Shown piece after piece: positions 2,705 to 18,108 of a stretch of 20,453 nt of DNA (position 1 is its first letter; each line of letters begins with the position of its first letter). Both the position numbers and the translations under genes were made by a program. Where the stretch lies: the IMG/VR virus record IMGVR_UViG_2695420718_000008; one strand, 5' to 3'. The notes below the pieces were generated by a model. The model had not been told where the DNA came from, searched no databases, and worked only from the letters and a program-made list of their open reading frames with translations. This DNA is from a virus. Lineage: Duplodnaviria > Heunggongvirae > Uroviricota > Caudoviricetes.

Positions 2705-3166
2705 CTACTGGTTACGTTTCTTTAGTGCCAGCATGTTCTCGAAGGCTTCCTCGTAGAGCTTGTTTAGTCCACGTAGCTGGTTAAGGAGTTTGGCTTTTTC
2801 TGACGCAGGTAGAATCTCGAAGAGGTTAAGTAACTCTGCCTGTTCTTCATTGACCAGCCTCCATCCTTTGCCTGAAAAGTTATCATCATAAGTATCTGAT
2901 GATCTTACATAATTCATTAAGTCTTTAAGGTCTTCTCGAATGTCCTCTGGTTTTACCTTTAACAGAGCCGCAAATTTTAGCGCAGCGTCGGTATTTACCG
3001 GTATCTTGCCGTTCAGATACTGGCTAACGGTGCCTTGAGATTCGAATCCCAACAACTCAGCCGCCAGCTCTTGAGTCAGCTTCAGCTCTTTTTTTCTTGC
3101 ATTCCATGCGGCTTTTAAATTCTTGCTCGCTTCTGGAGTTGCAATCACTTCGCGTGTTTTTTTCAT
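2705..3166 (-). CDS. prophage repressor, DicA/RacR-like (N-terminal XRE-type HTH)
   Basis: 153-aa product with HTH-like segment LTQELAAELLGFESQGTVSQYLNGK; divergent from the cro-like gene across a 107-bp intergenic region holding a palindrome; C-terminal region resembles DicA. Confidence 0.7.
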   Translation of the reverse strand: MKKTREVIATPEASKNLKAAWNARKKELKLTQELAAELLGFESQGTVSQYLNGKIPVNTDAALKFAALLKVKPEDIREDLKDLMNYVRSSDTYDDNFSGKGWRLVNEEQAELLNLFEILPASEKAKLLNQLRGLNKLYEEAFENMLALKKRNQ

Positions 3167-3214
3167 ACATAGAGTTTATTTGTTTTACCAATATTATCAA
3201 AGATAGTCTGGCTA

Positions 3215-3243
3215 TTGATCTTTAAAATTAGCGGGGCTAATAT
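3215..3243 (+). promoter_or_regulatory. putative sigma70 promoter (PR-like) for the cro-like gene, overlapping a palindromic candidate operator
   Basis: TTGATC (3215-3220), 17-nt spacer, TAATAT (3238-3243); palindrome ATTAGC-ggg-GCTAAT at 3227-3241 overlaps the spacer and -10. Confidence 0.35.
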
Positions 3244-3273
3244 TTGCTCGAGGCATAACGTAGAAGGTTGGCT

Positions 3274-3549
3274 ATGAACTTAAGAGACTATTTAAAAGAG
3301 AAACATATCACCCAGCTACAGTTTGGGAAGCTAACGGGTTTATCTCAGGTGCATGTAAGTCGAGTGCTGGGGGGCTATGAAAGATTCAGCCCTGAAAAAG
3401 CATTACGTGTTGCTGAAGTAACGAATTTCGAGGTTACACCTCATGAACTCCGGCCTGATATTTACCCGAATCCAACCGACGGCTTACCTGTTGGATTCAA
3501 GGCTAACACACCAAATGCATCGGAGTTGATTCATGAAAATCAGGCATGA
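3274..3549 (+). CDS. Cro/YdaS-like HTH protein
   Basis: ATG at 3274 with AAGG upstream (the track starts at an upstream TTG, 3268); product MNLRDYLKEKHITQLQFGKLTGLSQVHVSRVLGGYERFS has an HTH pattern; divergent from the repressor. Confidence 0.6.
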   Translation: MNLRDYLKEKHITQLQFGKLTGLSQVHVSRVLGGYERFSPEKALRVAEVTNFEVTPHELRPDIYPNPTDGLPVGFKANTPNASELIHENQA

Positions 3550-3958
3550 GCACATCCGCATGGCGATGAATGCCTGGGCGCATCCGGACGGTGAAAAAGT
3601 TCCGGCAGCTGAAATAACCCGGGCTTATTTTGAGCTTGGTATGACGTTCCCGGAATTATATGACGACAGCCATCCGGAAGCCCTGGCTCGCAATACCCAG
3701 AAAATTTTCCGCTGGGTGGAGAAAGACACTCCTGATGCGGTTAAAAAAATTCAGGCGTTGTTACCAGCGATCGAAAAAGCAATGCCGCCTCTGCTGGTGG
3801 CCCGAATGCGCAGCCACAGTTCAGCTTATTTTCGGGAGCTGGTGGAGACGCGGGAACGACTGGTGAGAGACGCTGATGATTTTGTCGCAGTGGCGATCGC
3901 TGGTTTCAACCAGATGAATCGTGGTGGCCCTGCAGGAAATATTGTGGCTGTGCATTGA
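3533..3958 (+). CDS. YdaT-like prophage protein (cII position)
   Basis: 141-aa product MKIRHEHIRMAMNAWAHPDGEKVPAAEITRAYFELGMTFPE... resembles my recollection of Rac YdaT; GGAG 7 nt upstream; overlaps the end of the cro-like gene. Confidence 0.55.
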   Translation: MKIRHEHIRMAMNAWAHPDGEKVPAAEITRAYFELGMTFPELYDDSHPEALARNTQKIFRWVEKDTPDAVKKIQALLPAIEKAMPPLLVARMRSHSSAYFRELVETRERLVRDADDFVAVAIAGFNQMNRGGPAGNIVAVH

Positions 3959-4029
3959 CTCGCAATATTCATACCGGATCACTTCCGGCAATTTGTGAGT
4001 AAAAAGATTCGGTATCAGAAGAGGTGAGT

Positions 4030-5070
4030 ATGGCTAACGCCTGGCTCAGATTATGGCATGACATGCCAAATGACCCTAAGTGGCGAACAATTGCCAGGGT
4101 GTCAGGGCAGCCAATTGCAACAGTGATGGCAGTGTATATCCACCTTCTGGTGAGCGCGTCACGAAATGTCACGACATGTCACGGCGTGTCACTACGTGGT
4201 CACATTGATGTCACGACGGAAGATTTAGCAAGTGCGCTTGATGTGACGGAAGAAGTAATTGATTCAATTTTACAGGCAATGCAGGGGCGGGTACTTGATG
4301 GAGATTTAATCACCGGATGGGAAAAACGCCAGGTACTGAAAGAGGACAATGGCAACGTTTCACAAACCGCGAAATCCCCGGCAGAGCGCAAGAGAGCGCA
4401 GCGCGAGAGGGAAAAATTACGAAAACAGAATGAGGGGTGTCACGACGAGTCACGCATATGTCACGACATGTCACGACGAGTCACGACAGATAAAGATACA
4501 GATAAAGAATTAAACCCCACACATAACGCGCACGTGCGCGAGAGTGCTCCGACCAGTGAGTCGAGTGGTACGCCGTTGCAGGCAGCAGAACCTGCATCCC
4601 TGGATGGACTGAGCGAACCCATCGGGAAATTTCCGATGGTCGATGACTGGCATCCGTCGCCGGATTTTCGACGACGGGCTGCGTTGTGGGGGATGGCTTT
4701 GCCGGAGCCGGAATTTACACCTGCTGAACTTGCCGCTTTCCGGGACTACTGGGCAGCGGAGGGGAAAGTTTTCACGCAGGTTCAGTGGGAGCAGAAATTC
4801 GCCCGTCACGTAAATCACGTCAGGGCGCAGGTTAAGCCAGTCAGCAAGGGGGTAAACCATGCAGCAGCACCAGGTGGCACCGCATCACGGGCAGTTCAGG
4901 AAATTCGGGCAGCACGTGAGCAGTGGGAACGTGAAAACGGATTTATCAGCGACGGAAACGGTCTGGAAGCTGTGGGAACTCATGGGGGAGGTTTATTCGA
5001 ACCGCTGGACCCAGAAGAACGGGGCCGCACCTTCGAAGCTCTGGATTGCACAGATTGGCGCGATGACTGA
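4030..5070 (+). CDS. replication initiator (lambda O-like) containing the origin iterons
   Basis: Track ORF 4024..5070 (GTG at 4024, ATG at 4030); two arrays of 10-bp-periodic TCACGAC repeats plus an AT-rich tract lie inside the frame, as in lambda O/ori. The 3' 210 nt overlap the P-like gene out of frame. Confidence 0.65.
   Translation: MANAWLRLWHDMPNDPKWRTIARVSGQPIATVMAVYIHLLVSASRNVTTCHGVSLRGHIDVTTEDLASALDVTEEVIDSILQAMQGRVLDGDLITGWEKRQVLKEDNGNVSQTAKSPAERKRAQREREKLRKQNEGCHDESRICHDMSRRVTTDKDTDKELNPTHNAHVRESAPTSESSGTPLQAAEPASLDGLSEPIGKFPMVDDWHPSPDFRRRAALWGMALPEPEFTPAELAAFRDYWAAEGKVFTQVQWEQKFARHVNHVRAQVKPVSKGVNHAAAPGGTASRAVQEIRAAREQWERENGFISDGNGLEAVGTHGGGLFEPLDPEERGRTFEALDCTDWRDD
4158..4219. 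repeat. iteron array 1 (about 6 copies of GTCACGAC-like 10-bp repeats)
   Basis: GTCACGAAAT, GTCACGACAT, GTCACGGCGT, GTCACTACGT, GGTCACATTGAT, GTCACGACGG at about 10-bp spacing. Confidence 0.6.
4439..4489. repeat. iteron array 2 (5 copies of GTCACGAC) followed by an AT-rich tract: candidate origin core
   Basis: GTCACGACGA, GTCACGCATA, GTCACGACAT, GTCACGACGA, GTCACGACAG at 10-bp phase, then ATAAAGATACAGATAAAGAATTAAA (4490-4514). Confidence 0.65.
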
Positions 5071-6922: not shown

Positions 6923-7609
6923 ATGACCCCAATAAAAATATTTATGACTATTGCTGATTTCAAACGGCCTAAATTGGAGCTCCCAAACGGGGCAAACAAA
7001 CTACTACTGCACTCTTGCTGTGCTCCATGTTCCGGTGAAGTGATGGAGGCGCTTCAGGCCTCGGGAATCGACTACACCATCTTTTTCTACAACCCGAACA
7101 TTCATCCTCAGAAAGAGTATTTAATTCGTAAGGATGAAAATATTCGCTTTGCTGAACAACACGGCGTGCCGTTTATCGATGCTGATTACGACACCGACAA
7201 CTGGTTTGAACGTGCCAAAGGAATGGAATGGGAGCCTGAGAGGGGGATCCGTTGTACCATGTGTTTTGACATGCGTTTTGAGCGGACAGCGTTGTACGCT
7301 GCTGAAAATGGTTTCAGTGTGATCAGCAGTTCACTGGGCATTTCACGCTGGAAAAATATGCAGCAGGTTAACGAGTGTGGGCGGCGAGCTGTTGCGCATT
7401 ATCCGGGTATGGTGTACTGGGATTATAACTGGCGCAAGCAGGGCGGCTCGTCCCGTATGATTGAAATCAGCAAGCGCGAAAAATTCTATCAGCAGGAATA
7501 TTGTGGCTGTGTGTATTCTCTGCGCGATACCAATCTACACCGCAAATCTCAGGGACGCCCTCTTATCAAAATTGGCCAACTCCACTACGGAAAAGAAGAG
7601 AAGGAGTGA
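6923..7609 (+). CDS. QueH-like protein (DUF208, epoxyqueuosine reductase family), prophage cargo
   Basis: 228-aa product with N-terminal [14 protein letters not shown] motif and further Cys residues (CTMCF, CGCVYS), consistent with my recollection of the QueH family; start may be the downstream ATG at 6944. Confidence 0.5.
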
Positions 7610-7739
7610 TTTTATGGATCACCTTTCTGATTGATTTCATATTGGCGAGGTGACGTGAGTTAAGTAGAATGGCTGCGGGTGCTTGAGGCTATCTGTCTCA
7701 GGCATGAACACTGAAAGGCAGATAGAGAAAAGCCCCAGT

Positions 7740-7810
7740 TAACATTTCGCGTCCTGCAAGACGCTTAACATTAATCTGAGGCCCAATCTATGTCTCACAA
7801 ATGTAGGTTA
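7740..7810 (-). ncRNA. predicted Sok-like antisense RNA of the hok locus (position inferred, not sequence-verified)
   Basis: hok-family loci encode an antisense RNA complementary to the leader around the mok start; a minus-strand TTGCCT-N17-TAACCT candidate promoter lies at about 7847-7819. Boundaries are guesses. Confidence 0.25.
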
Positions 7811-7846
7811 GCCTCTTACGTGCCGAAAGGCAAGGGGAAGCAGGCT

Positions 7847-8002
7847 ATGAAGCAGCAAAAGGCGATGTTAATCGCCCTGATCGTCATCTGTTTAACCGTC
7901 ATTGTGACGGCACTGGTAACGAGGAAAGACCTCTGCGAGGTACGAATCCGAACCGGCCAGACGGAGGTCGCTGTCTTCACAGCTTACGAACCTGAGGAGT
8001 AA
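7847..8002 (+). CDS. hokD: Hok/Gef-family type I toxin (HokD/RelF-like)
   Basis: 51-aa product MKQQKAMLIALIVICLTVIVTALVTRKDLCEVRIRTGQTEVAVFTAYEPEE matches remembered HokD; an in-frame upstream ATG at 7790 (MSHKCRLASYVPKGKGKQA) is mok-like; the leader 7676-7790 resembles the hok mRNA 5' end (GCTTGAGGCT...). Confidence 0.85.
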   Translation: MKQQKAMLIALIVICLTVIVTALVTRKDLCEVRIRTGQTEVAVFTAYEPEE

Positions 8003-8070
8003 GAGACCCGGCGGGGGAGTAATCTCCCGCCACCTCTGATGTGCCAGGCATCCTCAACGCACCCGCACTT

Positions 8071-8093
8071 AACCCGCTTCGGCGGGTTTTTGC
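8071..8093 (+). terminator. rho-independent terminator after hokD (copy 1 of a duplicated terminator)
   Basis: AACCCGCTTCGGCGGGTTTTTGC: stem CCCGC/GCGGG, loop TTCG, T-run. Confidence 0.65.
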
Positions 8094-8103
8094 ATTAGTC
8101 TGG

Positions 8104-8132
8104 TTGACAAAAATAGAAAAATGCGAAAATAT
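8104..8132 (+). promoter_or_regulatory. putative sigma70 promoter for the two-gene cassette
   Basis: Perfect -35 TTGACA (8104-8109), 17-nt spacer, weak -10 AAATAT (8127-8132); 35 bp upstream of the 8168 ATG. Confidence 0.3.
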
Positions 8133-8167
8133 GTGGTTTACGAATTCTAAAAAAAGCGAAACTTGAA

Positions 8168-8818
8168 ATGAATGAAAATCAGTTAGCTCCTTGTTGGGAA
8201 TTTCAACCTTATCTTGCTGAAAACTATGTTCGCCACTTGTTGGCGGAGATCGCTAACGTACTTGAGCAGCTGTACTATCATAAGCACGCATTAGACAGCA
8301 ACTGGTCTGAAGGTGTAAGGGCTTATGATTGGGTCAGAAATCATCTTATTCAAAATGAAGATGCAATTCCTGGCCTTGAGATGATTTCCAAGGGGTTGGA
8401 CTATGTAGTTGCTTTAAATAAAGTTCCGCTACAATTTACCAAAGATTGCATTAATAACCCCAAAAAGAAACATCGTCTGCGTCGAAATAAAGTAGAGTAT
8501 GAGCAGCTCTCATTGTTTGGTGATGTTGAGGCTGAGCAAGATATTACATGGCGAGTCATAGCTGAGCCTTTTTTATCCGAAGAGGGCGATGGTGAATTAG
8601 AGTCCACACTGCCTCGTTGGGAGGTAGCTCTTGTTGGATTTAATACTTATGGTGCTCAGATTAGTATAGTTTCTCATCAATCTACAGCATCGATGCCGCT
8701 TATGCCTCTTGATTATAACACACTCCCTGACGAAGCGGAGATTAATAAGGTGCCTCTTCGTCGGCGTACGAAGGATAAAGATTTGGATGTGAGCAGTGAT
8801 GGAACATCAGGTGAATAA
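8168..8818 (+). CDS. hypothetical protein (216 aa), first gene of the AT-rich cassette; candidate effector/toxin partner of the downstream HTH-peptidase
   Basis: Track ORF; product MNENQLAPCWEFQPYLAENYVRHLLAEIANVLEQLYYHKHALD...; low GC; 3' end overlaps the start of the next gene by about 20 nt. No family recognised. Confidence 0.6.
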   Translation: MNENQLAPCWEFQPYLAENYVRHLLAEIANVLEQLYYHKHALDSNWSEGVRAYDWVRNHLIQNEDAIPGLEMISKGLDYVVALNKVPLQFTKDCINNPKKKHRLRRNKVEYEQLSLFGDVEAEQDITWRVIAEPFLSEEGDGELESTLPRWEVALVGFNTYGAQISIVSHQSTASMPLMPLDYNTLPDEAEINKVPLRRRTKDKDLDVSSDGTSGE

Positions 8819-9902
8819 CTTCACTGAGTATCGGGGTGATAAGCTCAAACTAGCGAGAATGGCTGTTGGGCTTTCTTGTGAAGAGTTAGCCGAAAAAATT
8901 GGCAAGACAAAGCAATTCGTTAGCAAACTGGAGAAGGGGTGCAGGCCATCGGAGCAATGTCTTGAGTTAATATCTTCAGCGCTTATGATTAAGTCCAGTT
9001 TTCTTTTTACTGAACGAAAATACGCTCTGGAAAGTGATGTCTGCCATTTTCGGAGTAAGAAGTCCAGGACTCAAACGCTGACTAATAGTGTATTGGCCAG
9101 GGCTGAGATTCTTAATATTATAATTTCTGCTGTTGAAGGTGAAATCGAATTTCCTGACGTTAACATACCGGAGCACCCAGGGGCTGAATTACTTACTCCG
9201 AATGATATTGAGCGAGTGGCAGAAGATTGTCGCCGTGCCTGGAATTTAGGTCTTGGCCCTATATCATCAATGGTTAAATTGGCGGAGAGTTTAGGGGTAA
9301 TCGTTGCGCATGTTACGGGAGTCGATGATCGTGTTGATGCTTTTACTGTTCACAATAACAGGCCTGTTATCATCAGGAACAATGTTAAAAAAAGCATATG
9401 TAGATTTCGCTCTGATTTAGGTCATGAATTAGGGCATTTAGTAATGCATGAGGGCATAACGACAGGTGATAAACTTACGGAATCACAAGCCGATCACTTT
9501 TCGAGCGCCTTATTAGTTCCCAGGTTATCTTTCATTAAAGAATTTCCACGAATACGAGGTAAGCAATTCGACTGGAATGCTCTGGTTGAATTTAAACTTA
9601 GATGGAAAATCAGCCTTAAAATGTGTATTTATCGAGCCAGCGCATTAGGCTTATTGACCCAGGAACAGGCAAGAACTGGCTATATGCATCTTAATTCCAG
9701 AGGGTATACGAGAGTTGAACCTGGTGATGAACTTTTGCGCCCTGAAGAACCCGGCATGCTGGCCGAGGCGATTGAAATGCTGGATGATGCAACCTGGCTA
9801 AGAATTCTTATGAAAACTGGCTTGAGCCAAGATTTAATTCGTGAGTTGTTCTCCATCAACAGACCTATTACAAATCCAAGAAATATTTTCCAGATTGTTT
9901 GA
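8799..9902 (+). CDS. XRE-type HTH fused to ImmA/IrrE-like (COG2856, M78) zinc metallopeptidase
   Basis: N-terminal HTH-like segment LKLARMAVGLSCEELAEKIGKTKQFVSKLEKG; HEXXH motif HELGHLVMHE near residue 210; ATG 8799 (GTG 8796 also possible); overlaps the upstream gene. Confidence 0.7.
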   Translation: MEHQVNNFTEYRGDKLKLARMAVGLSCEELAEKIGKTKQFVSKLEKGCRPSEQCLELISSALMIKSSFLFTERKYALESDVCHFRSKKSRTQTLTNSVLARAEILNIIISAVEGEIEFPDVNIPEHPGAELLTPNDIERVAEDCRRAWNLGLGPISSMVKLAESLGVIVAHVTGVDDRVDAFTVHNNRPVIIRNNVKKSICRFRSDLGHELGHLVMHEGITTGDKLTESQADHFSSALLVPRLSFIKEFPRIRGKQFDWNALVEFKLRWKISLKMCIYRASALGLLTQEQARTGYMHLNSRGYTRVEPGDELLRPEEPGMLAEAIEMLDDATWLRILMKTGLSQDLIRELFSINRPITNPRNIFQIV

Positions 9903-9904
9903 GT

Positions 9905-9927
9905 ATACCCGCTTCGGCGGGTTTTTT
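9905..9927 (+). terminator. rho-independent terminator after the cassette (copy 2 of the duplicated terminator)
   Basis: TACCCGCTTCGGCGGGTTTTTTG; the 19-nt core ACCCGCTTCGGCGGGTTTT is identical to 8072-8090. Confidence 0.65.
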
Positions 9928-10011
9928 GTTTTTATTTTCAACGTGTTTGAAGTTTTGGACGGTGCCAGAATAGAATCAAAAATACTTAAGTAGCGCGCAG
10001 GGAGAAGAGGG

Positions 10012-10233
10012 ATGGACCCCGAACAGGGGGAGTGCTATTTATCTGGAAGGATTCTGTTGATGAAAATCGAAGAATTACGTGAAATTTTTAGTGAAGATGG
10101 CCTCTATGCTGTGCGCGTTGAGAATGGGGGTATTACCTACACAGCGTTAATTCCTGATGATCATGTAGTGTTATCTGTTGAGGCATTCATTGAATACTTG
10201 GAAAGACTCGGTTTCAAGGTAGTTCGGGAATAA
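10012..10233 (+). CDS. hypothetical small protein (73 aa)
   Basis: ATG 10012 preceded by GGGAGAAGAGGG; product MDPEQGECYLSGRILLMKIEELREIFSEDGLYAVRVENGG...; alternative start at MKIEEL. Confidence 0.4.
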   Translation: MDPEQGECYLSGRILLMKIEELREIFSEDGLYAVRVENGGITYTALIPDDHVVLSVEAFIEYLERLGFKVVRE

Positions 10234-10292
10234 GTTATAATACGTGAGCCAGCCTGAACAACTGGCAACCTGCAGCGCCATTGGAGATGACA

Positions 10293-10565
10293 ATGGCGCA
10301 TAATTTCAAATTTCGCAATTCTGATTCTGCCTTTGCCAGCAGGCACGGGTGGCGTTCTCACGCATTCAAATATGACTGGTATCAGCACGATCCCTGTACT
10401 GAAGAACAGGCCGAATGGCTGATTCATAACTACCGCAGACGTGGATATGAGTTTAGGAAAGCCCTCACCCTCGATTATCGTCACTGGATAATCTACGTCA
10501 GACTCCCTTATTCCGAACGCCCACCGCGTCCGTCCCGCACATTCCAGCAACGCATCTGGAGGTAA
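10293..10565 (+). CDS. hypothetical protein (about 90 aa)
   Basis: Track ORF 10281..10565 (TTG start); ATG at 10293 preceded by GGAG; product MAHNFKFRNSDSAFASRHGWRSHAFKYDWYQHDPCTEEQAEWL...; start uncertain. Confidence 0.45.
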   Translation: MAHNFKFRNSDSAFASRHGWRSHAFKYDWYQHDPCTEEQAEWLIHNYRRRGYEFRKALTLDYRHWIIYVRLPYSERPPRPSRTFQQRIWR

Positions 10566-10566
10566 C

Positions 10567-11613
10567 GTGCGGGTATTACTTCGACCTGTTCTGGTACCGG
10601 AACTCGGGCTGGTGATCGTTAAGCCGGGCCGTGAATCCATGCCGGTATTCCACAATACCCGGGTACTGGTGGAGCCGGAACCGAAAAGCATGCGTAATCT
10701 GCCGTCCGGGGTCGTTCCTGCCGTTCGCCAGCCGCTGGCGGAGGATAAATCATTACTGCCATTTTTCAGCGACGAACGAGTGATTCGTGCTGCTGGTGGC
10801 GCTGGCGCATTGTCTGATTGGTTACTGCGCCATGTTAAATCCTGCCAGTGGCCACACGGCGATTATCACCACAGTGAAACCGTCATTCACCGTTATGGTA
10901 CCGGCGCAATGGTGTTGTGCTGGCACTGCGACAACCAGCTGCGCGACCAGACCTCCGAATCACTCGGGCAACTTGCTCACCAAAACCTGTCTGCATGGAT
11001 GATTGACGTCATACGCCATGCAATGAATGGCTCGCAGGAACGGGAATTATCGCTGGCTGAATTATCCTGGTGGGCGGTCCGCAATCAGGTGGCGGACGCG
11101 CTACCGGAAGCGGTATTACGTCGTTCGCTGGGGTTGCGTGCGGAAAAAATCCGCTCAATGTACCGTGAAAGCGACATCGTACCGGGAGAGCAGACCGCCA
11201 CCAGCATACTGAAGCAGCGCACAAAAAATCTTGCGCCGCTGCCTCACGCCCACCAGCAAAACCCGCCACAGGAAGAGACGGTGGTCAGCATTGCCGTTGA
11301 TCCTGAGTCTCCGGAATCTTTCATGAAACGACCTAAACGTCGCCGCTGGGTTAACGAGAAATACACACGCTGGGTGAAGACACAGCCGTGTGCGTGTTGT
11401 GGTAAGCCAGCCGACGATCCCCATCACCTGATTGGTCATGGTCAGGGCGGAATGGGGACAAAATCTCACGATATTTTCACGCTACCGCTGTGTCGGGAGC
11501 ATCACAACGAGCTTCATGCGGATCCTCTGGCGTTCGAAGAAAAGCATGGTTCTCAGGTTGATTTAATTTTTCGTTTTCTTGATCACGCCTTTGCAACTGG
11601 CGTGCTTGGGTAA
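10567..11613 (+). CDS. DUF968 (YdfU-like) prophage protein with C-terminal HNH-like Cys/His motif
   Basis: 348-aa product; C-terminus CACCGKPADDPHHLIGHG...LPLCREHHNELH; GTG start at 10567 with GGAGG upstream; size and position match ydfU next to hokD in Qin. Confidence 0.65.
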   Translation: MRVLLRPVLVPELGLVIVKPGRESMPVFHNTRVLVEPEPKSMRNLPSGVVPAVRQPLAEDKSLLPFFSDERVIRAAGGAGALSDWLLRHVKSCQWPHGDYHHSETVIHRYGTGAMVLCWHCDNQLRDQTSESLGQLAHQNLSAWMIDVIRHAMNGSQERELSLAELSWWAVRNQVADALPEAVLRRSLGLRAEKIRSMYRESDIVPGEQTATSILKQRTKNLAPLPHAHQQNPPQEETVVSIAVDPESPESFMKRPKRRRWVNEKYTRWVKTQPCACCGKPADDPHHLIGHGQGGMGTKSHDIFTLPLCREHHNELHADPLAFEEKHGSQVDLIFRFLDHAFATGVLG

Positions 11614-11625
11614 AAGAGGTGACTG

Positions 11626-12000
11626 ATGCTCATAGATTTGGTTTTACCTTACCCGCCGACGGTGAACACTTACTGGCGACGCCGTGGCAGCACATATTTT
11701 ATCTCGGAGGAGGGAAAGCGTTATCGCCGGGCTGTGGCGCTTATTGTTCGCCAGCAGCGGCTGAAATTAAGCCTGTCCGGAAGGTTGGCAATAAAAATTA
11801 TTGCAGAACCACCGGATAAGCGCCGCCGTGACCTGGACAATATTCTGAAAGCGCCGCTGGATGCGCTGACGCATGCGGGGTTGCTAATGGACGATGAGCA
11901 GTTTGATGAAATCAATATCGTTCGTGGTCAGCCAGTATCTGGTGGACGTATGGGGGTGAAGATTTACCCCATAATGCATGAAGAGCAGGTCAAAAAATGA
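11626..12000 (+). CDS. rusA: Holliday junction resolvase RusA
   Basis: 124-aa product with the DKRRRDLDNILKAPLDALTHAGLLMDDEQ motif, matching the RusA catalytic region (DRRRRDLDN in E. coli RusA); lies immediately before Q. Confidence 0.8.
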   Translation: MLIDLVLPYPPTVNTYWRRRGSTYFISEEGKRYRRAVALIVRQQRLKLSLSGRLAIKIIAEPPDKRRRDLDNILKAPLDALTHAGLLMDDEQFDEINIVRGQPVSGGRMGVKIYPIMHEEQVKK

Positions 12001-12818
12001 AACTGGAAGATTTACCGAAATACTACTCCCCAAAATCCCCTGGCCTGACCGATGTATCGGCCTCAACGTCAAAAGATGCGCTGAGTATCACTGATGTGAT
12101 GGCCGCGCAGGGCATGACACAGAATCGGGCTGAGATGGGGTTTTCTGCGTTCCTGGGGAAAATGGGCATCAGTATGAATGACAGGGCGCGGGCAACAGAA
12201 TTACTGGCAGATTATGCACTCAGTCGGTGCGATCGTGTGGCGGCGTTGAGAAAACTTCCGGCAGAAATAAAACCGGTAGTGATGCGCATTATGGCTTCGT
12301 ATGCGTTTGAAGATTATGCCCGTAGCGCGGCGAGCAAAAAACAGTGCCCCTGCTGTCACGGAAAAAAATTTATTGAAAGCGAGGTTTTTACAAACAAGAT
12401 CCAGTATCCGGATGGTAAGCCACCAGTGTGGGCAAAGTGCACAAAAGGCGTGTATCCGTCTTACTGGGAAGAATGGAAAAAAGTCAGGGAGGTGGTAAAA
12501 GTTGCCTGTCCGGAGTGTGGCGGAAAGGGTGAGGTTTCCACCGCCTGTAAGGATTGCCGTGGGCGTGGTGTCGCCATTCATCGTGAAGAGTCGGTAAAAC
12601 GTGGTATGCCTGTTATCAGAGATTGCCAGCGTTGTGGTGGTCGTGGCTGTGAAAGGCTGCCATCAACGGAGGCATTTAATGCCATATGCAAAGTGACGAG
12701 TGCTATCACGCTTGATACGTGGAAAAAATCAGTGAAACGCTTTTACGATACGTTGGTGGTTCGGTTTGACATTGAAGAGGCATGGGCGGAGCGGCAGTTA
12801 AAGAGGGTAACGCGATAG
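11997..12818 (+). CDS. late antiterminator Q-like protein (Cys-rich zinc-binding)
   Basis: 273 aa; multiple CxxC motifs (CPCCHG, CPECGG, CKDCRG, CQRCGG); start coupled to the rusA stop (ATGA); followed by a promoter and terminator pair as for pR'/tR'. Confidence 0.65.
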   Translation: MKLEDLPKYYSPKSPGLTDVSASTSKDALSITDVMAAQGMTQNRAEMGFSAFLGKMGISMNDRARATELLADYALSRCDRVAALRKLPAEIKPVVMRIMASYAFEDYARSAASKKQCPCCHGKKFIESEVFTNKIQYPDGKPPVWAKCTKGVYPSYWEEWKKVREVVKVACPECGGKGEVSTACKDCRGRGVAIHREESVKRGMPVIRDCQRCGGRGCERLPSTEAFNAICKVTSAITLDTWKKSVKRFYDTLVVRFDIEEAWAERQLKRVTR

Positions 12819-13392: not shown

Positions 13393-14442
13393 ATGCTTAA
13401 TACTGTAAAAATATCCAGTTGTGAGTTAATCAACGCCGACTGCCTGGAATTTATCCGGTCGTTACCCGAAAATTCTGTTGACCTGATAGTCACGGACCCG
13501 CCGTACTTTAAAGTGAAGCCTGAGGGCTGGGATAACCAGTGGAAGGGCGACGATGATTACCTGAAGTGGCTGGACCAGTGTCTGGCGCAGTTCTGGCGGG
13601 TGCTGAAACCTGCCGGAAGTCTTTACCTGTTCTGTGGTCATCGCCTGGCATCTGATATCGAAATCATGATGCGTGAACGCTTCAGTGTGCTGAACCATAT
13701 TATCTGGGCGAAGCCGTCCGGACGCTGGAACGGATGCAACAAGGAAAGCCTGCGGGCGTATTTCCCCGCCACAGAGCGCATTCTGTTCGCGGAACATTAT
13801 CAGGGGCCGTATCGTCCGAAAGATGCCGGGTATGCGGCGAAGGGCAGTGCACTGAAACAGCATGTGATGGCCCCGCTGATTTCTTACTTTCGTGATGCGC
13901 GCGCGGCCCTGGGGATAACGGCAAAACAGATTGCAGATGCCACAGGAAAGAAAAACATGGTGTCGCACTGGTTCAGTGCCAGTCAGTGGCAGCTACCGAA
14001 TGAAAGCGATTATCTGAAATTACAGGCGCTGTTTGCCCGGGTGGCAGAAGAGAAGCATCGGCGTGGTGAACTGGAAAAGCTCCACCACCAGCTGGTGGAT
14101 ACGTATACCTCACTGAACCGGCAGTATGCGGAGCTGCTGAGTGAATATAAACATCTGCGGCGGTATTTTGGCGTGACGGTGCAGGTGCCGTATACCGATG
14201 TGTGGACGCATAAACCGGTGCAGTTCTATCCCGGGAAACATCCGTGCGAAAAACCGGCAGAAATGCTGCAGCAGATAATCAGCGCAAGCAGTCGTCCGGG
14301 TGACCTGGTTGCAGATTTTTTCATGGGGTCGGGTTCAACGGTAAAAGCGGCGATGGCACTGGGGCGTCGTGCGATTGGCGTTGAACTGGAGACCGGACGT
14401 TTTGAGCAGACAGTCAGGGAAGTTCAGGATTTAATCGTTTGA
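13393..14442 (+). CDS. orphan DNA methyltransferase (N6-adenine/N4-cytosine class, DPPY motif)
   Basis: 349 aa; IVTDPPYF (catalytic motif IV) near the N-terminus and FFMGSGST (AdoMet motif I) near the C-terminus, a beta-class order; no adjacent restriction endonuclease candidate. Confidence 0.8.
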   Translation: MLNTVKISSCELINADCLEFIRSLPENSVDLIVTDPPYFKVKPEGWDNQWKGDDDYLKWLDQCLAQFWRVLKPAGSLYLFCGHRLASDIEIMMRERFSVLNHIIWAKPSGRWNGCNKESLRAYFPATERILFAEHYQGPYRPKDAGYAAKGSALKQHVMAPLISYFRDARAALGITAKQIADATGKKNMVSHWFSASQWQLPNESDYLKLQALFARVAEEKHRRGELEKLHHQLVDTYTSLNRQYAELLSEYKHLRRYFGVTVQVPYTDVWTHKPVQFYPGKHPCEKPAEMLQQIISASSRPGDLVADFFMGSGSTVKAAMALGRRAIGVELETGRFEQTVREVQDLIV

Positions 14443-14491: not shown

Positions 14492-14567
14492 GGCCCTTTA
14501 GCTCAGTGGTGAGAGCGAGCGACTCATAATCGCCAGGTCGCTGGTTCAAATCCAGCAAGGGCCACCA
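14492..14567 (+). tRNA. tRNA with CAU anticodon (Met or lysidine-dependent Ile2; ileZ-like position)
   Basis: Hand-folded cloverleaf: acceptor GGCCCTT/AAGGGCC, T-arm GCTGG-TTCAAAT-CCAGC, anticodon loop CTCATAA, encoded CCA 3' end. Confidence 0.8.
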
Positions 14568-14667: not shown

Positions 14668-14744
14668 GCGTTGTTAGCTCAGCCGGACAGAGCAATTGCC
14701 TTCTAAGCAATCCGTCACTGGTTCGAATCCAGTACAGCGCGCCA
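14668..14744 (+). tRNA. tRNA-Arg (anticodon UCU)
   Basis: Hand-folded cloverleaf: acceptor GCGTTGT/ACAGCGC (one G-U pair), anticodon stem ATTGC/GCAAT with loop CTTCTAA, T-arm ACTGG-TTCGAAT-CCAGT, encoded CCA. Confidence 0.8.
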
Positions 14745-14881
14745 TATTCATTCTTCCAGATTCCTTTCGGCAGAGCCTTATACTGAAATATACCTGGCTC
14801 AGGATATTGTTGAAAATATTATATGTTTGTCAAAAATAAAAGTTCTGTTAAGTGTTGATTGAGTGTTTGTTATACGGTCTA

Positions 14882-15208
14882 ATGGTTTTTTCAGCATTAA
14901 ATATTTATCATTCATATGGTGTGGGTAGAGTGAATATTGATGAGGCGTCGGGGTGTTTCATCCTTAGGCAGCGTATTGATATAGTCAATGCAGAACGAGC
15001 AAAGGCCTTCAGCCGTTTGACAGTTTTGTTCTGTACTCCTGATCGTCTTTCGGGAAGAGACGTTATTATTCTGAATAGTGATGCTATACAGAGGGTTTGC
15101 GATGAGTTCATGGTGGCTAATTCAGAATTATTTGCTCTTGTTCAGGAGTACAACAGAATAGCCAGGACCTGTGGTATGGATGAACTTCGGATTACTCATC
15201 TGGGGTAG
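14882..15208 (+). CDS. hypothetical protein (about 108 aa) at the stx-equivalent cargo position
   Basis: Track ORF 14852..15208 with an internal ATG at 14882; product MVFSALNIYHSYGVGRVNIDEASGCFILRQRIDIVNAERAKAF...; AT-rich; no clear SD. Confidence 0.3.
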   Translation: MVFSALNIYHSYGVGRVNIDEASGCFILRQRIDIVNAERAKAFSRLTVLFCTPDRLSGRDVIILNSDAIQRVCDEFMVANSELFALVQEYNRIARTCGMDELRITHLG

Positions 15209-15655
15209 ATACATATCTGGATTATCACCGGTTACGGTAAAAAGTGATTGCTTACTGTTTTTGTGAATGGCATTGCAGCAGCCGGATAATGTCAGTGCTG
15301 GCTGACGGTGTGCTGGTGGCGGGTGTGGTGGTTGCTGCTTTCCCGTTGCTGAAAAAGAAAACGCCAGACTGTTAGCCGGGTATCAGTTAGCGGGAGAAAT
15401 TTTTAAATACTTCACAATTCAGGCGGTTGACTGTTGTCTGGTTTGCGGGGAGTTTGTTAAAAGAAACTGGCATGGTGAATCCCCCTGTGCGGAGGGGCAA
15501 TCAGCGAGTAGGTATATGGGATAATCGCGGATTCAGGTGCTGGTACTGAATTCACCGGGAGGCACCCGGCACCATGCAATGGCACATAGCGCCACTCTCC
15601 AGCCCCTCTCCGGAGGGGCTGTTTATATTGATTTTGTCAGATGTGAGTAAACTCC

Positions 15656-15991
15656 TTATGGACTTTGTTGTTTTAGCCCATAAGGACATATTTGCAGAGT
15701 GCAACGGTTATTAAAGCATTCATTCAATACGTTATCTGTATTTGTAGGGCATTCCTGGCTGTTTTTGATTAAATTCCAGAATGTTTTATTGAATGGTACT
15801 ACGTTGTAAATGGTTACAGGCAGCACTTTGTTATTGAGCATGATGCCTGTGTGAGTCAGTGTAAATATACTTTCAGGAGGTAAGAAAGCATCCGATTGAT
15901 ACCAGATTATTAATTTTATTTTACTCCATATGACTGAAAAAGATATTCCGCATGATGGCTGGATAACTGTATCAATCACAATCCACTTCAT
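15656..15991 (-). CDS. hypothetical protein (111 aa), very AT-rich, reverse-oriented cargo gene
   Basis: Track ORF; AAGGA about 8 nt upstream of the ATG on the minus strand; product [32 protein letters not shown]...; composition is atypical, so it could be non-coding AT-rich DNA. Confidence 0.3.
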
Positions 15992-16251
15992 TTAGTTTCC
16001 TTGTTTATGCCTTGCTGGTGATGTTCTGAAAAGTATAAATGATATTTTTGATTGTAAACCATAGAGCAGAATTATTTTTCTGATGTTGTTTATTGTTTAT
16101 TTAAATGCAGGGTGGTTTATATCTCGTCTTGTAGTTTATCCATGCATATCTGCTTGATGATGAGGTTTTTAATTAAGGTATGGTTTTGTGTTTTTTCTGT
16201 ATTACATGTCAGGTATTTTAAAGAATCATTTTTCAGATGGTGGAAAGAACC

Positions 16252-18108
16252 ATGGCATTTAAACACTATGATGTTGTCAGGGCGGCGTCGCCGTCAGATC
16301 TTGCGGAAAAGCTGACACATAAACTGAAAGAGGGCTGGCAGCCGTTTGGTAGTCCGGTGGCCATAACCCCTTATACCCTGATGCAGGCGATTGCAGCAGA
16401 AGGTGATGTGGTCGTCAGTGGTGCAACTGAGCCGGAGTGGTACTACGTCATCGTACTGGCCGGGCAATCCAATGCCATGGCTTACGGTGAAGGGCTTCCG
16501 CTTCCGGATTCTTACGATGCGCCCCACCCACGCATTAAGCAACTGGCCCGTCGCAACACAGTGACTCCCGGTGGTAAAGCATGCGCATTTAACGACATCA
16601 TTCCGGCAGACCACTGCCTGCATGATGTTCAGGATATGAGCGCACTGAATCATCCGAAGGCAGACCTGAGCAAAGGGCAGTACGGCTGTGTCGGCCAGGG
16701 CTTACATATTGCCAAAAAACTGCTTCCGTATATCCCGAATAACGCGGGGATCCTGCTGGTACCATGCTGTCGTGGTGGTTCGGCATTCACCCAGGGCGCG
16801 GAGGGGACATTCAGTGCGGACACGGGGGCCAGCCAGGATTCGGCACGCTGGGGTGTGGGTAAACCGTTATATCAGGACCTGATCGCACGCACCAAAGCGG
16901 CATTACAGAAGAACCCGAAAAATGTGTTGCTGGCGGTGTGCTGGATGCAGGGCGAATTTGACATGAGCGCTGCCACCTACGCACAGCAACCGGACCTGTT
17001 CACGGCCATGCTGAAGCAGTTCCGTACTGACCTTTCCGGATTTAACGCGCAGTGCCATGGCGGCAGTGCTGCAGTTGTACCGTGGATTTGTGGCGACACG
17101 ACGTATTACTGGAAAAACACATACGGCACACAGTATGACTCCGTCTACGGCGCGTACAAAAACAGGGAGAGCGACAACGTTTTCTTTGTGCCGTTCATGA
17201 CCGACGGTAACGGCAACAACACGCCCACCAACTTACCGGCAGAAGACCCGGATATTGCTGATGCAGGTTATTACGGCGCGCAATCCCGTAGTAATGGTAA
17301 TTGGGTATCGTCAAATCGTCCGACACATTTCAGTTCATGGGCGCGCAGGGGCATTATTTCGGATCGCCTGGCAACCGCTATTCTGAACGCAGTTGGTCGA
17401 ACCAGCGCCTTCATCAGCGGTACCGCACCGGAGATTAAACCCTCGCCCGGCGGCGACACGCCATCGGGGCCGTCTGATGGTGACACATCCGTTCGTACAG
17501 TCTCCCTGCTGCCGACAGCCGGAGAGGCTGCTGCGCAGGGCTGGACCATCACCGGCGGCAGTGTTGCGCTGGAAGATGGTGTGTTTAAGGTTGCCAAGCA
17601 GAGCAATAAAACCTGGTCCCTGATGCATCCGGTGGATGACGCGGTCTCCCTGCTGACACGGGGTGGCAGACTGAGCTGTAAGTTTCGACTGTCAGGCGCA
17701 CTGACCAACAACCAGTTCGGTCTGGGAATTTATCTGTATACCGATGTAGCGTTACCTGACGTCGTGGCGATGACCGGGACTGGTAACCCGTTCCTGATGT
17801 CGTTCTTCACCCAGACCACAGACGGCAAACTGAATCTGATGCATCACAAGAAAGCCGGAAACACAAAGTTGGGCGAGTTCGGGAATTACAGTAACGACTG
17901 GCAGACGCTGGAGCTGGTGTTCACCGCCGGCAGTGCCACGGTTACTCCGAAACTGAATGGAGTGGCTGGCCCGGCATTCCAGGTCATAAAAGACAGTCTG
18001 ACACTGGGGCTGAATGCGCTGACGCTGACGGATATTACCAAAAATGCAGCGTATGGCGTTGAGATAGAAAGTCTGGTGCTGGAGATAAATGCACCGGCAT
18101 CATCATAA
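16252..18108 (+). CDS. NanS-p-like sialate O-acetylesterase (SGNH/DUF303 hydrolase with C-terminal extension)
   Basis: About 618 aa; motif VIVLAGQSNAMAYGEG typical of YjhS/NanS-type SGNH esterases; Gly/Thr-rich C-terminal domain; sits between the cargo locus and the holin, as in Stx phages. ATG 16252 has a better SD than 16237. Confidence 0.65.
   Translation: MAFKHYDVVRAASPSDLAEKLTHKLKEGWQPFGSPVAITPYTLMQAIAAEGDVVVSGATEPEWYYVIVLAGQSNAMAYGEGLPLPDSYDAPHPRIKQLARRNTVTPGGKACAFNDIIPADHCLHDVQDMSALNHPKADLSKGQYGCVGQGLHIAKKLLPYIPNNAGILLVPCCRGGSAFTQGAEGTFSADTGASQDSARWGVGKPLYQDLIARTKAALQKNPKNVLLAVCWMQGEFDMSAATYAQQPDLFTAMLKQFRTDLSGFNAQCHGGSAAVVPWICGDTTYYWKNTYGTQYDSVYGAYKNRESDNVFFVPFMTDGNGNNTPTNLPAEDPDIADAGYYGAQSRSNGNWVSSNRPTHFSSWARRGIISDRLATAILNAVGRTSAFISGTAPEIKPSPGGDTPSGPSDGDTSVRTVSLLPTAGEAAAQGWTITGGSVALEDGVFKVAKQSNKTWSLMHPVDDAVSLLTRGGRLSCKFRLSGALTNNQFGLGIYLYTDVALPDVVAMTGTGNPFLMSFFTQTTDGKLNLMHHKKAGNTKLGEFGNYSNDWQTLELVFTAGSATVTPKLNGVAGPAFQVIKDSLTLGLNALTLTDITKNAAYGVEIESLVLEINAPASS

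Follow-up and report, generated by a model that had tools for sequence, protein, structure and literature searches.

The cassette and its two genes

The subject of this article is a two-gene cassette, rmrT-rmrA, carried in 20,453 nucleotides of DNA from a virus of the class Caudoviricetes (IMG/VR record IMGVR_UViG_2695420718_000008); by the window we mean this whole stretch. Two open reading frames (ORFs) on its plus strand, 8168-8818 (216 amino acids) and 8799-9902 (367 amino acids), share 20 nucleotides. The DNA of Escherichia coli VR50 is identical here, and RefSeq annotates the same two coding sequences in it, as 'hypothetical protein' and 'helix-turn-helix domain-containing protein'. The second frame has an alternative in-frame GTG at 8796, which would make its product 368 instead of 367 residues long. 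An earlier note on this DNA, written from the letters without database searches, had picked out the overlapping pair and had proposed that it is an undescribed toxin-antitoxin or anti-phage module, with the 216-residue protein, which it could place in no family, as the effector. The features of the cassette are the following.

8104-8132, plus strand: candidate sigma-70 promoter, with a -35 box TTGACA at 8104-8109, read from the sequence
8134-8166, plus strand: second conserved upstream block, GGTTTACGAATTCTAAAAAAAGCGAAACTTGA, recognised by its conservation in alignment A6
8168-8818, plus strand: rmrT, 216 amino acids, presumed toxin
8504-8518, plus strand: codons of QLSLF, RmrT residues 113-117, a consensus beta-clamp-binding motif
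8799-9902, plus strand: rmrA, 367 amino acids, a fusion of an XRE helix-turn-helix (HTH) and an ImmA/IrrE M78 zinc peptidase, presumed antitoxin
9423-9437, plus strand: HELGH (HEXXH) zinc-binding motif of RmrA, residues 209-213

The type of module was guessed correctly, but its novelty was not. Both products are already covered by RosmerTA models of PADLOC-DB v2, which we used for the RosmerTA calls: the first protein matches the RmrT model PDLC03929 (E 4.6e-25, residues 7-209 of 216, profile positions 5-195 of 198), and the second matches the RmrA model PDLC03943 (E 6e-105, residues 11-350) together with 13 more RmrA models. Since both proteins match, standard defence finders would call the locus Rosmer, an arrangement that the earlier note had itself mentioned in passing. 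The 216-residue protein does have a family; it further belongs to PHROG 5786 (E 8e-85), although Pfam and NCBIfam scans gave no match for it. The genes lie side by side on one strand, and the pairing is conserved in all the related loci that we read, in at least seven genomic contexts. We are highly confident that the cassette is a copy of the catalogued RosmerTA toxin-antitoxin module, carried as a prophage moron. The locus itself is ordinary and its kind is already known. Its value lies in the toxin, which public records call 'hypothetical', and we regard the locus as one of moderate interest because a candidate clamp-binding motif in that toxin opens the way to a direct test of how a common defence system works.

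The fusion of an XRE HTH with an M78 peptidase had been predicted from the HELGH motif and an HTH-like segment, and the absence of these domains from a profile search had been named as an outcome that would refute the proposal. The search found them. Pfam places HTH_3 at RmrA residues 16-62 (E 5e-7; nucleotides 8844-8984) and Peptidase_M78 at residues 176-281 (E 6.5e-11; nucleotides 9324-9641), and HELGH is intact. In alignment A4 this motif is invariant among the relatives and the verified RmrA, and so are the downstream residues E228, A231 and D232. RmrA also hits the NCBIfam model spr1629 (E 1.5e-45, under that model's cut-off), and in a sequence search of the Protein Data Bank (PDB) it matched solved structures by its HTH part only.

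One might read the same domains differently, as a prophage switch of the ImmR/ImmA or CapH/CapP type that governs lysogeny and induction, with the 216-residue protein as an accessory and not a toxin. Indeed, ImmR/ImmA of the element ICEBs1 and CapH/CapP of the cyclic-oligonucleotide-based anti-phage signalling system (CBASS) use the logic of an XRE HTH plus an M78 peptidase, the peptidase region of RmrA matches the PADLOC capP model at E 1.6e-14, and PHROG 2439, to which RmrA belongs, is labelled 'transcriptional regulator'. In our opinion such a role is very improbable. ImmR/ImmA, IrrE/DdrO and CapH/CapP share with RmrA the M78 peptidase family and the XRE HTH partner domain, but they consist of a separate repressor and peptidase that control other genes, whereas in the window the two are fused in one 367-residue protein whose partner is RmrT. 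The full-length RmrA models beat capP by about 90 orders of magnitude. Besides, a repressor and cro-like genes belonging to the prophage itself are already present (2705-3549), the phage mEp460 and similar relatives do without the cassette altogether, and the pair is also found outside prophages and far from phage regulatory regions.

The distribution of the family tells the same two-gene story wherever it could be read. An exhaustive profile search with RmrT returned 69 cluster representatives, mostly of about 200 residues, and 55 diverse representatives of the family make up alignment A3. All 55 match PDLC03929 and no other model, Pfam matches none of them, and every public record for members of the family reads 'hypothetical'. 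The members that carry a name belong to Proteobacteria, among them Enterobacterales, Aeromonas, Vibrio, Photobacterium and Pseudovibrio; WP_001179380.1, the toxin of E. coli E101 (Rousset 2021), is not among the cluster members listed. In all the loci read, the RmrT homologue is followed immediately, and usually with an overlap, by a gene for an HTH plus M78 protein of 367-377 residues. The pair occupies the nin region or the stretch from Q to the lysis genes, lies beside a HigB toxin gene, an integrase or a resolvase, and also occurs at chromosomal sites that are not prophages; its hosts are Enterobacter, Serratia, Xenorhabdus and environmental Proteobacteria. RmrT-RmrA behaves as an obligate mobile two-gene module. 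A tblastn search with RmrT matched no deposited phage genome, its sole matches being two E. coli plasmid records.

The cassette also stands apart in its base composition, as the earlier note had remarked: G+C is 41.5% in the cassette (8092-9906), 49.5% in the left flank, 51.4% in the right flank and 48.5% in the whole window. The TTGACA box that the note had offered as a promoter is present at 8104-8109, though a consensus promoter scanner did not call it, because the -10 element is weak (AAATAT at 8127-8132 with a spacing of 17 nucleotides, or TGn-GAAAAT at 8122-8130 with 15). The leader of 75 nucleotides is nearly base-for-base identical in cassettes of Enterobacter, Serratia and Xenorhabdus at other prophage positions (alignment A6). 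These cassettes keep the upstream block GGTTGACA...GCGAAAATAT..GGTTTACG...AAAAAAGCGAAACTTGA, and in four related cassettes of other genera the -35 box and the GCGAAAATAT block hardly vary, if at all. Given this conservation across genera and across prophage positions, the promoter region moves along with the genes, and it is for the cross-genus conservation only that we retain TTGACA as a candidate promoter. The leader contains two look-alike blocks, GGTTGAC...GCGAAAA and GGTTTAC...GCGAAAC, both conserved across genera, and the second of them (8134-8166) includes an imperfect palindrome at 8137-8152. Because it resembles the first block (GGTTKAC...GCGAAA), we consider the second a candidate RmrA operator or leader, and the two together may be tandem operators for the HTH domain of RmrA. 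Both genes would be transcribed from the cassette's own promoter, and their translation would be coupled.

The QLSLF motif and the structure of RmrT

Residues 113-117 of RmrT read QLSLF and are set in acidic surroundings (VEYE-QLSLF-GDVEAEQD). The consensus of clamp-binding motifs is QL(S/D)LF, with the canonical forms Q-phi-x-[L/M]-[F/L] and Q-phi-x-[L/M]-x-[F/L]; QLxLF binds best, replacement of the Gln by Asn has a modest effect on binding, and the motifs are usually flanked by acidic residues and may be internal (PMC11139829). QLSLF of RmrT is a canonical motif by this definition of beta-clamp ligands, and the same five residues are the clamp-binding motif of Bacillus subtilis PolC (PMC12309361).

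The motif is conserved in the family. In alignment A3, 29 of the 55 members have the canonical motif within one aligned segment of 15 residues, and the other 10,513 residues hold a single match; the relaxed motif is found in the same segment of 40 members, with 15 matches in the other residues. The segment is among the most conserved of the family: E110 is kept in 50 of 55 and Q113 in 43, while L116 is present in 37, or in 49 if F or M is counted as well. A second, independent set of family members gives Q[LM]x[LM]F at residues of about 110-122 in 25 of 42. Variants of the motif within the family include QLSLPL, QMSLL and QMGLF. The first two match the clamp-binding motifs of Hda and MutS. The QMGLF type equals the motif of B. 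subtilis DnaE (PMC12309361).

RmrT is acidic (pI 4.9) and has no transmembrane segment, the highest Kyte-Doolittle value over a window of 19 residues being 0.84. An AlphaFold2 model built on the alignment of 55 sequences has a mean predicted local distance difference test (pLDDT) of 87.9 and a predicted template-modelling score (pTM) of 0.77. Two long helices at the N-terminus lead to a sheet of three strands, after which come a short helical segment at 101-115 and another three strands. In a model from a shallow alignment, pLDDT is below 50 over residues 96-123, and in the model from the deep alignment residues 108-115 form a helix that is followed by coil, with pLDDT of about 81. A PDB sequence search with the family profile gave chance matches only (E at least 0.3), and a Foldseek search of the model against viral predicted structures returned nothing at E 0.001 or below.

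The core of the model is, at most, weakly like that of a restriction endonuclease. This resemblance raises the question whether RmrT could be a toxin that cuts DNA, with a PD-(D/E)XK fold, in which case QLSLF would at most tether it to clamps at the fork. Such an enzyme should carry its catalytic D...(D/E)-x-K on strands 2 and 3, and alignment A3 contains no such conserved residues; strand 3 has the consensus VPxRF and then D93, and D78 is variable. We consider a nuclease unlikely. A toxin acting on the membrane, like RmrT of the Gordonia phage Kita, was also considered and was rejected, because RmrT of the window has no hydrophobic segment.

The sliding clamp as the proposed target

RosmerTA is a common defence system, and the motif offers a concrete hypothesis, cheap to test, for its mode of action. 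On the strength of the motif we lean, by a little, towards a toxin RmrT that acts through the sliding clamp. RmrT, a soluble protein, when not neutralised, would insert QLSLF, predicted to lie across a helix end and the adjoining loop, into the hydrophobic cleft of DnaN that binds peptides and lies between domains II and III; both RmrT and its peptide KVEYEQLSLFGDVE would be expected to bind E. coli DnaN. It would thus compete with Pol III and the other clamp partners and would halt the replication of the host, as well as of every phage reliant on the host replisome, with growth arrest or abortive infection as the result. In uninfected cells RmrA would restrain the toxin, through repression of the operon by its HTH and through binding or proteolytic processing of RmrT by its M78 domain, probably with the assistance of ClpXP, by analogy with other Rosmer systems. 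RmrT would be freed upon phage infection or upon loss of the prophage. If this is true, the phages restricted should be those that depend on the host clamp.

The role given to ClpXP comes from the essentiality of clpX or clpP seen in RipAB, in E. coli E101 and in Pectobacteriaceae. RipA renders clpX essential in Streptococcus pneumoniae (PMC12795458), a zinc-peptidase toxin-antitoxin pair renders clpP essential in E. coli E101 (Rousset 2021), and in three Pectobacteriaceae rmrA is essential and clpX is essential too, only in the carriers of Rosmer (10.64898/2025.12.09.693261).

RipAB (Spr1630/Spr1629) of S. pneumoniae is also the system that brings the clamp into the picture. RipA interacts with DnaN in two-hybrid assays, and suppressors of its toxicity map to the hydrophobic pocket of the clamp and abolish the interaction (PMC12795458), so the target on which RipA acts is the one that we propose for RmrT of the window. 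In the literature that could be searched, this is the sole article that links Rosmer to the clamp, and it contains no description of a clamp-binding motif in RipA. RipA matches the RmrT model PDLC03931 and RipB the RmrA model PDLC03945. Like the cassette in the window, RipAB has the Rosmer architecture and an internal Q-phi-x-L-x-F/L motif; it differs in that its toxin belongs to another RmrT sequence family and in that it is chromosomal and found in Firmicutes. Competence induction and dependence on ClpX are described for it, and phage defence is not its described role (PMC12795458).

A RipA homologue was found by searching a primer from that article against genomes. In relatives from Listeria, Enterococcus, Ligilactobacillus and Macrococcus the RipA family has QIQLEL, QLELNF or QLVLNL at the place equivalent to that of QLSLF, and the homologue of S. 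mitis has QMELV there; in every case the position is after the sheet and directly before a hydrophobic strand. An N-terminal NQDLF of RipA (MLNQDLF in the homologue of S. mitis C22, whose gene spans 3874-4605 of its own locus) was tried as a clamp motif and was rejected, since it is not conserved and the internal motif is.

The experimentally verified RosmerTA of E. coli OLC-716 provides a third case. As in the window, there are two genes with the toxin first, and its RmrA has the same length and order of domains (XRE HTH, M78 peptidase with HEXXH, C-terminal region), with 29% identity over 301 residues. Its toxin is likewise soluble, of about 240 residues and of unknown function, and it has the clamp-binding-like QLKLDL at the equivalent position, at residue 143 in an acidic stretch before a WFLL strand. 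Of the 24 members of that toxin family, 22 have QLxLD[LF], QLxFxF or NLDLF at this position. The OLC-716 toxin differs in that it matches another model, PDLC03935, and shows no detectable similarity to RmrT of the window; and phage protection is a measured property of OLC-716 and a possible one of the system described here.

Given that PDLC03929, PDLC03935 and PDLC03931 have a common architecture and all show a conserved motif at the same point within it, it is tempting to speculate that the soluble Rosmer toxins form one class of proteins that poison the sliding clamp. We would put the chances of this generalisation at slightly less than even. Should it be correct, defence by RosmerTA would be a shutdown of beta-clamp-dependent replication, in which the HTH-M78 antitoxin and ClpXP set the level of free toxin, and RosmerTA would be a widespread counterpart, in function, of the rare SocAB type. 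SocAB of Caulobacter crescentus (type VI; cited in PMC12795458) resembles the proposed mechanism functionally and has no sequence or domain relationship with the pair. Its toxin, according to what Aakre et al. reportedly found in 2013, blocks replication via the beta-clamp cleft and is kept harmless by ClpXP. SocA is an adaptor for ClpXP with neither an HTH nor a peptidase domain, while RmrA of the window has both.

Several points weigh against a clamp poison. Between the three RmrT families there is no significant similarity of sequence or profile (BLASTP E 7; hhalign probability 0.2-0.9%), so that the transfer of the RipA target to RmrT of the window rests solely on the shared motif and architecture. 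In the hhalign comparison of alignment A3 with alignment A5 the two are collinear with their motifs aligned, yet at a probability of 0.9% this is a hint only. In the confident AlphaFold model Q113-S115 are at the end of the helix 108-115 and not in a free loop, and given this position the conservation of the motif could reflect a structural role, a contact with RmrA or a degron. The motif is short, and the relaxed pattern arises 0.28 times per shuffled protein. About a quarter of the RmrT family has no recognisable motif. Finally, Rosmer toxins are not uniform, because the toxin of the Gordonia phage Kita acts on the membrane (PMC10440598).

What the pair does for its carriers is a separate question. 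RosmerTA was described as a zinc-peptidase antitoxin with a toxin of unknown function, in which rmrA could not be deleted (Millman 2022, 10.1101/2022.05.11.491447), and in the literature that could be searched we found no experimental test of a RosmerTA of the PDLC03929 type. We see an even chance that this copy defends against phage. It may instead be mainly an addiction or stabilisation module, or a device for prophage exclusion, with no role against unrelated phages and a toxin whose target is perhaps not the clamp. The toxin-antitoxin architecture fits such a role, and so does the adjoining hokD, a second post-segregational killer in the same prophage. In other Rosmer systems the reported phenotypes are essentiality of the antitoxin and dependence on ClpX or ClpP, not defence; most phages were unaffected by the RosmerTA homologues tested in S. 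thermophilus (PMC12322248); and insertion sequences (IS) interrupt the cassette in two E. coli genomes. However, the verified E. coli system and the Kita system do protect against phages, stabilisation of a prophage is irrelevant to the family members at chromosomal sites, and a conserved motif of the clamp-binding kind points to a specific target in replication. In our opinion, a role confined to addiction or exclusion is rather unlikely. The Kita system deserves a comparison here, since it too is a Rosmer pair carried by a phage, and its antitoxin is of the ImmA type. Its protection is narrow, and the toxin, which ends in a C-terminal membrane segment, causes depolarisation of the membrane (Ernits et al. 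2023, PMC10440598), whereas RmrT of the window has no such segment.

Insertion site and prophage setting

The boundaries of the cassette can be drawn exactly, because the window agrees with the phage mEp460, and with many other lambdoid phages, as far as 8092 and again from 9907. In these phages the empty site has a single copy of the terminator and then directly the small 'rem' gene. The cassette is therefore a self-contained insert of 1835 bp relative to mEp460, between hokD and rem in the nin region of an E. coli lambdoid prophage. The earlier note had suggested this comparison with relatives that lack the cassette; it had also placed the cassette in a moron position next to hokD and before DUF968, rusA and Q, and had seen the same terminator on either side, all of which agrees with the features below.

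7790-8002: hok (PF01848)
8072-8091, plus strand: left copy of the 20-nucleotide direct repeat, the intrinsic terminator of hokD and left edge of the insertion; exact repeat ACCCGCTTCGGCGGGTTTTT
9907-9926, plus strand: right copy of ACCCGCTTCGGCGGGTTTTT, exact, the terminator that ends the cassette and right edge of the insertion
10567-11613: DUF968, from the Pfam scan
11997-12818: Q antiterminator

Terminator-like hairpins are found at 8071-8088 and 9907-9922. Since the terminator of the cassette is identical to that of hok over 20 nucleotides, exchange by recombination at the shared terminator seems a reasonable explanation, and the arrangement suggests recombination between shared terminator sequences as a way in which morons are swapped. 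In this respect the cassette illustrates cleanly how a duplicated terminator can serve as the site of moron exchange. The order of the prophage is repressor (2705-3166), replication genes, QueH, hok, cassette, DUF968, RusA and Q, where RusA is placed according to the annotation of the VR50 region, which is identical.

Among 5426 complete E. coli genomes, 232 (about 4%) carry the cassette region, which was counted as present if at least 80% of window positions 7700-10300 was found. Natural carriers include the strains VR50, ML35 and BEN2908. In two of the best-matching genomes listed, NZ_CP069459.1 and NZ_AP045810.1, the cassette is split by a transposase of the IS5 or IS3 family, and these interrupted copies may represent inactivation of the module.

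The neighbourhood contains some further genes of interest. Just upstream of hokD, at 6923-7609, is a homologue of QueH (epoxyqueuosine reductase, PF02677, E 1e-65), that is, an enzyme of the queuosine pathway in a nin-region moron position. The 'rem' ORF that follows the cassette (10012-10233, PHROG 340) is intact and encodes 73 amino acids, and for the identical DNA of VR50 RefSeq gives only a partial pseudogene (11361-11435 of the VR50 locus). Downstream of Q, at 13393-14442, there is a DNA methyltransferase (PF01555; PADLOC MTase_II PDLC03265, E 5e-166). As no restriction-enzyme gene adjoins it, we believe that it is probably an orphan anti-restriction methylase. The equivalent slot of the VR50 prophage holds a Ser/Thr kinase and a PP2C phosphatase, the methylase being reduced to a fragment.

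Two tRNA genes, tRNA-Met (CAT) at 14492-14567 and tRNA-Arg (TCT) at 14668-14744, lie downstream of the antiterminator, as in lambdoid phages of the Shiga toxin (Stx) type. The AT-richest part of the window, 14800-16200 (33-38% G+C), has two ORFs, 14852-15208 on the plus strand (PHROG 2873) and 15656-15991 on the minus strand (PHROG 4407), and neither matches Pfam or PADLOC. This part sits between the tRNA genes and a SASA/NanS-type esterase (16237-18108), which is the slot that the stx genes occupy in Stx phages.

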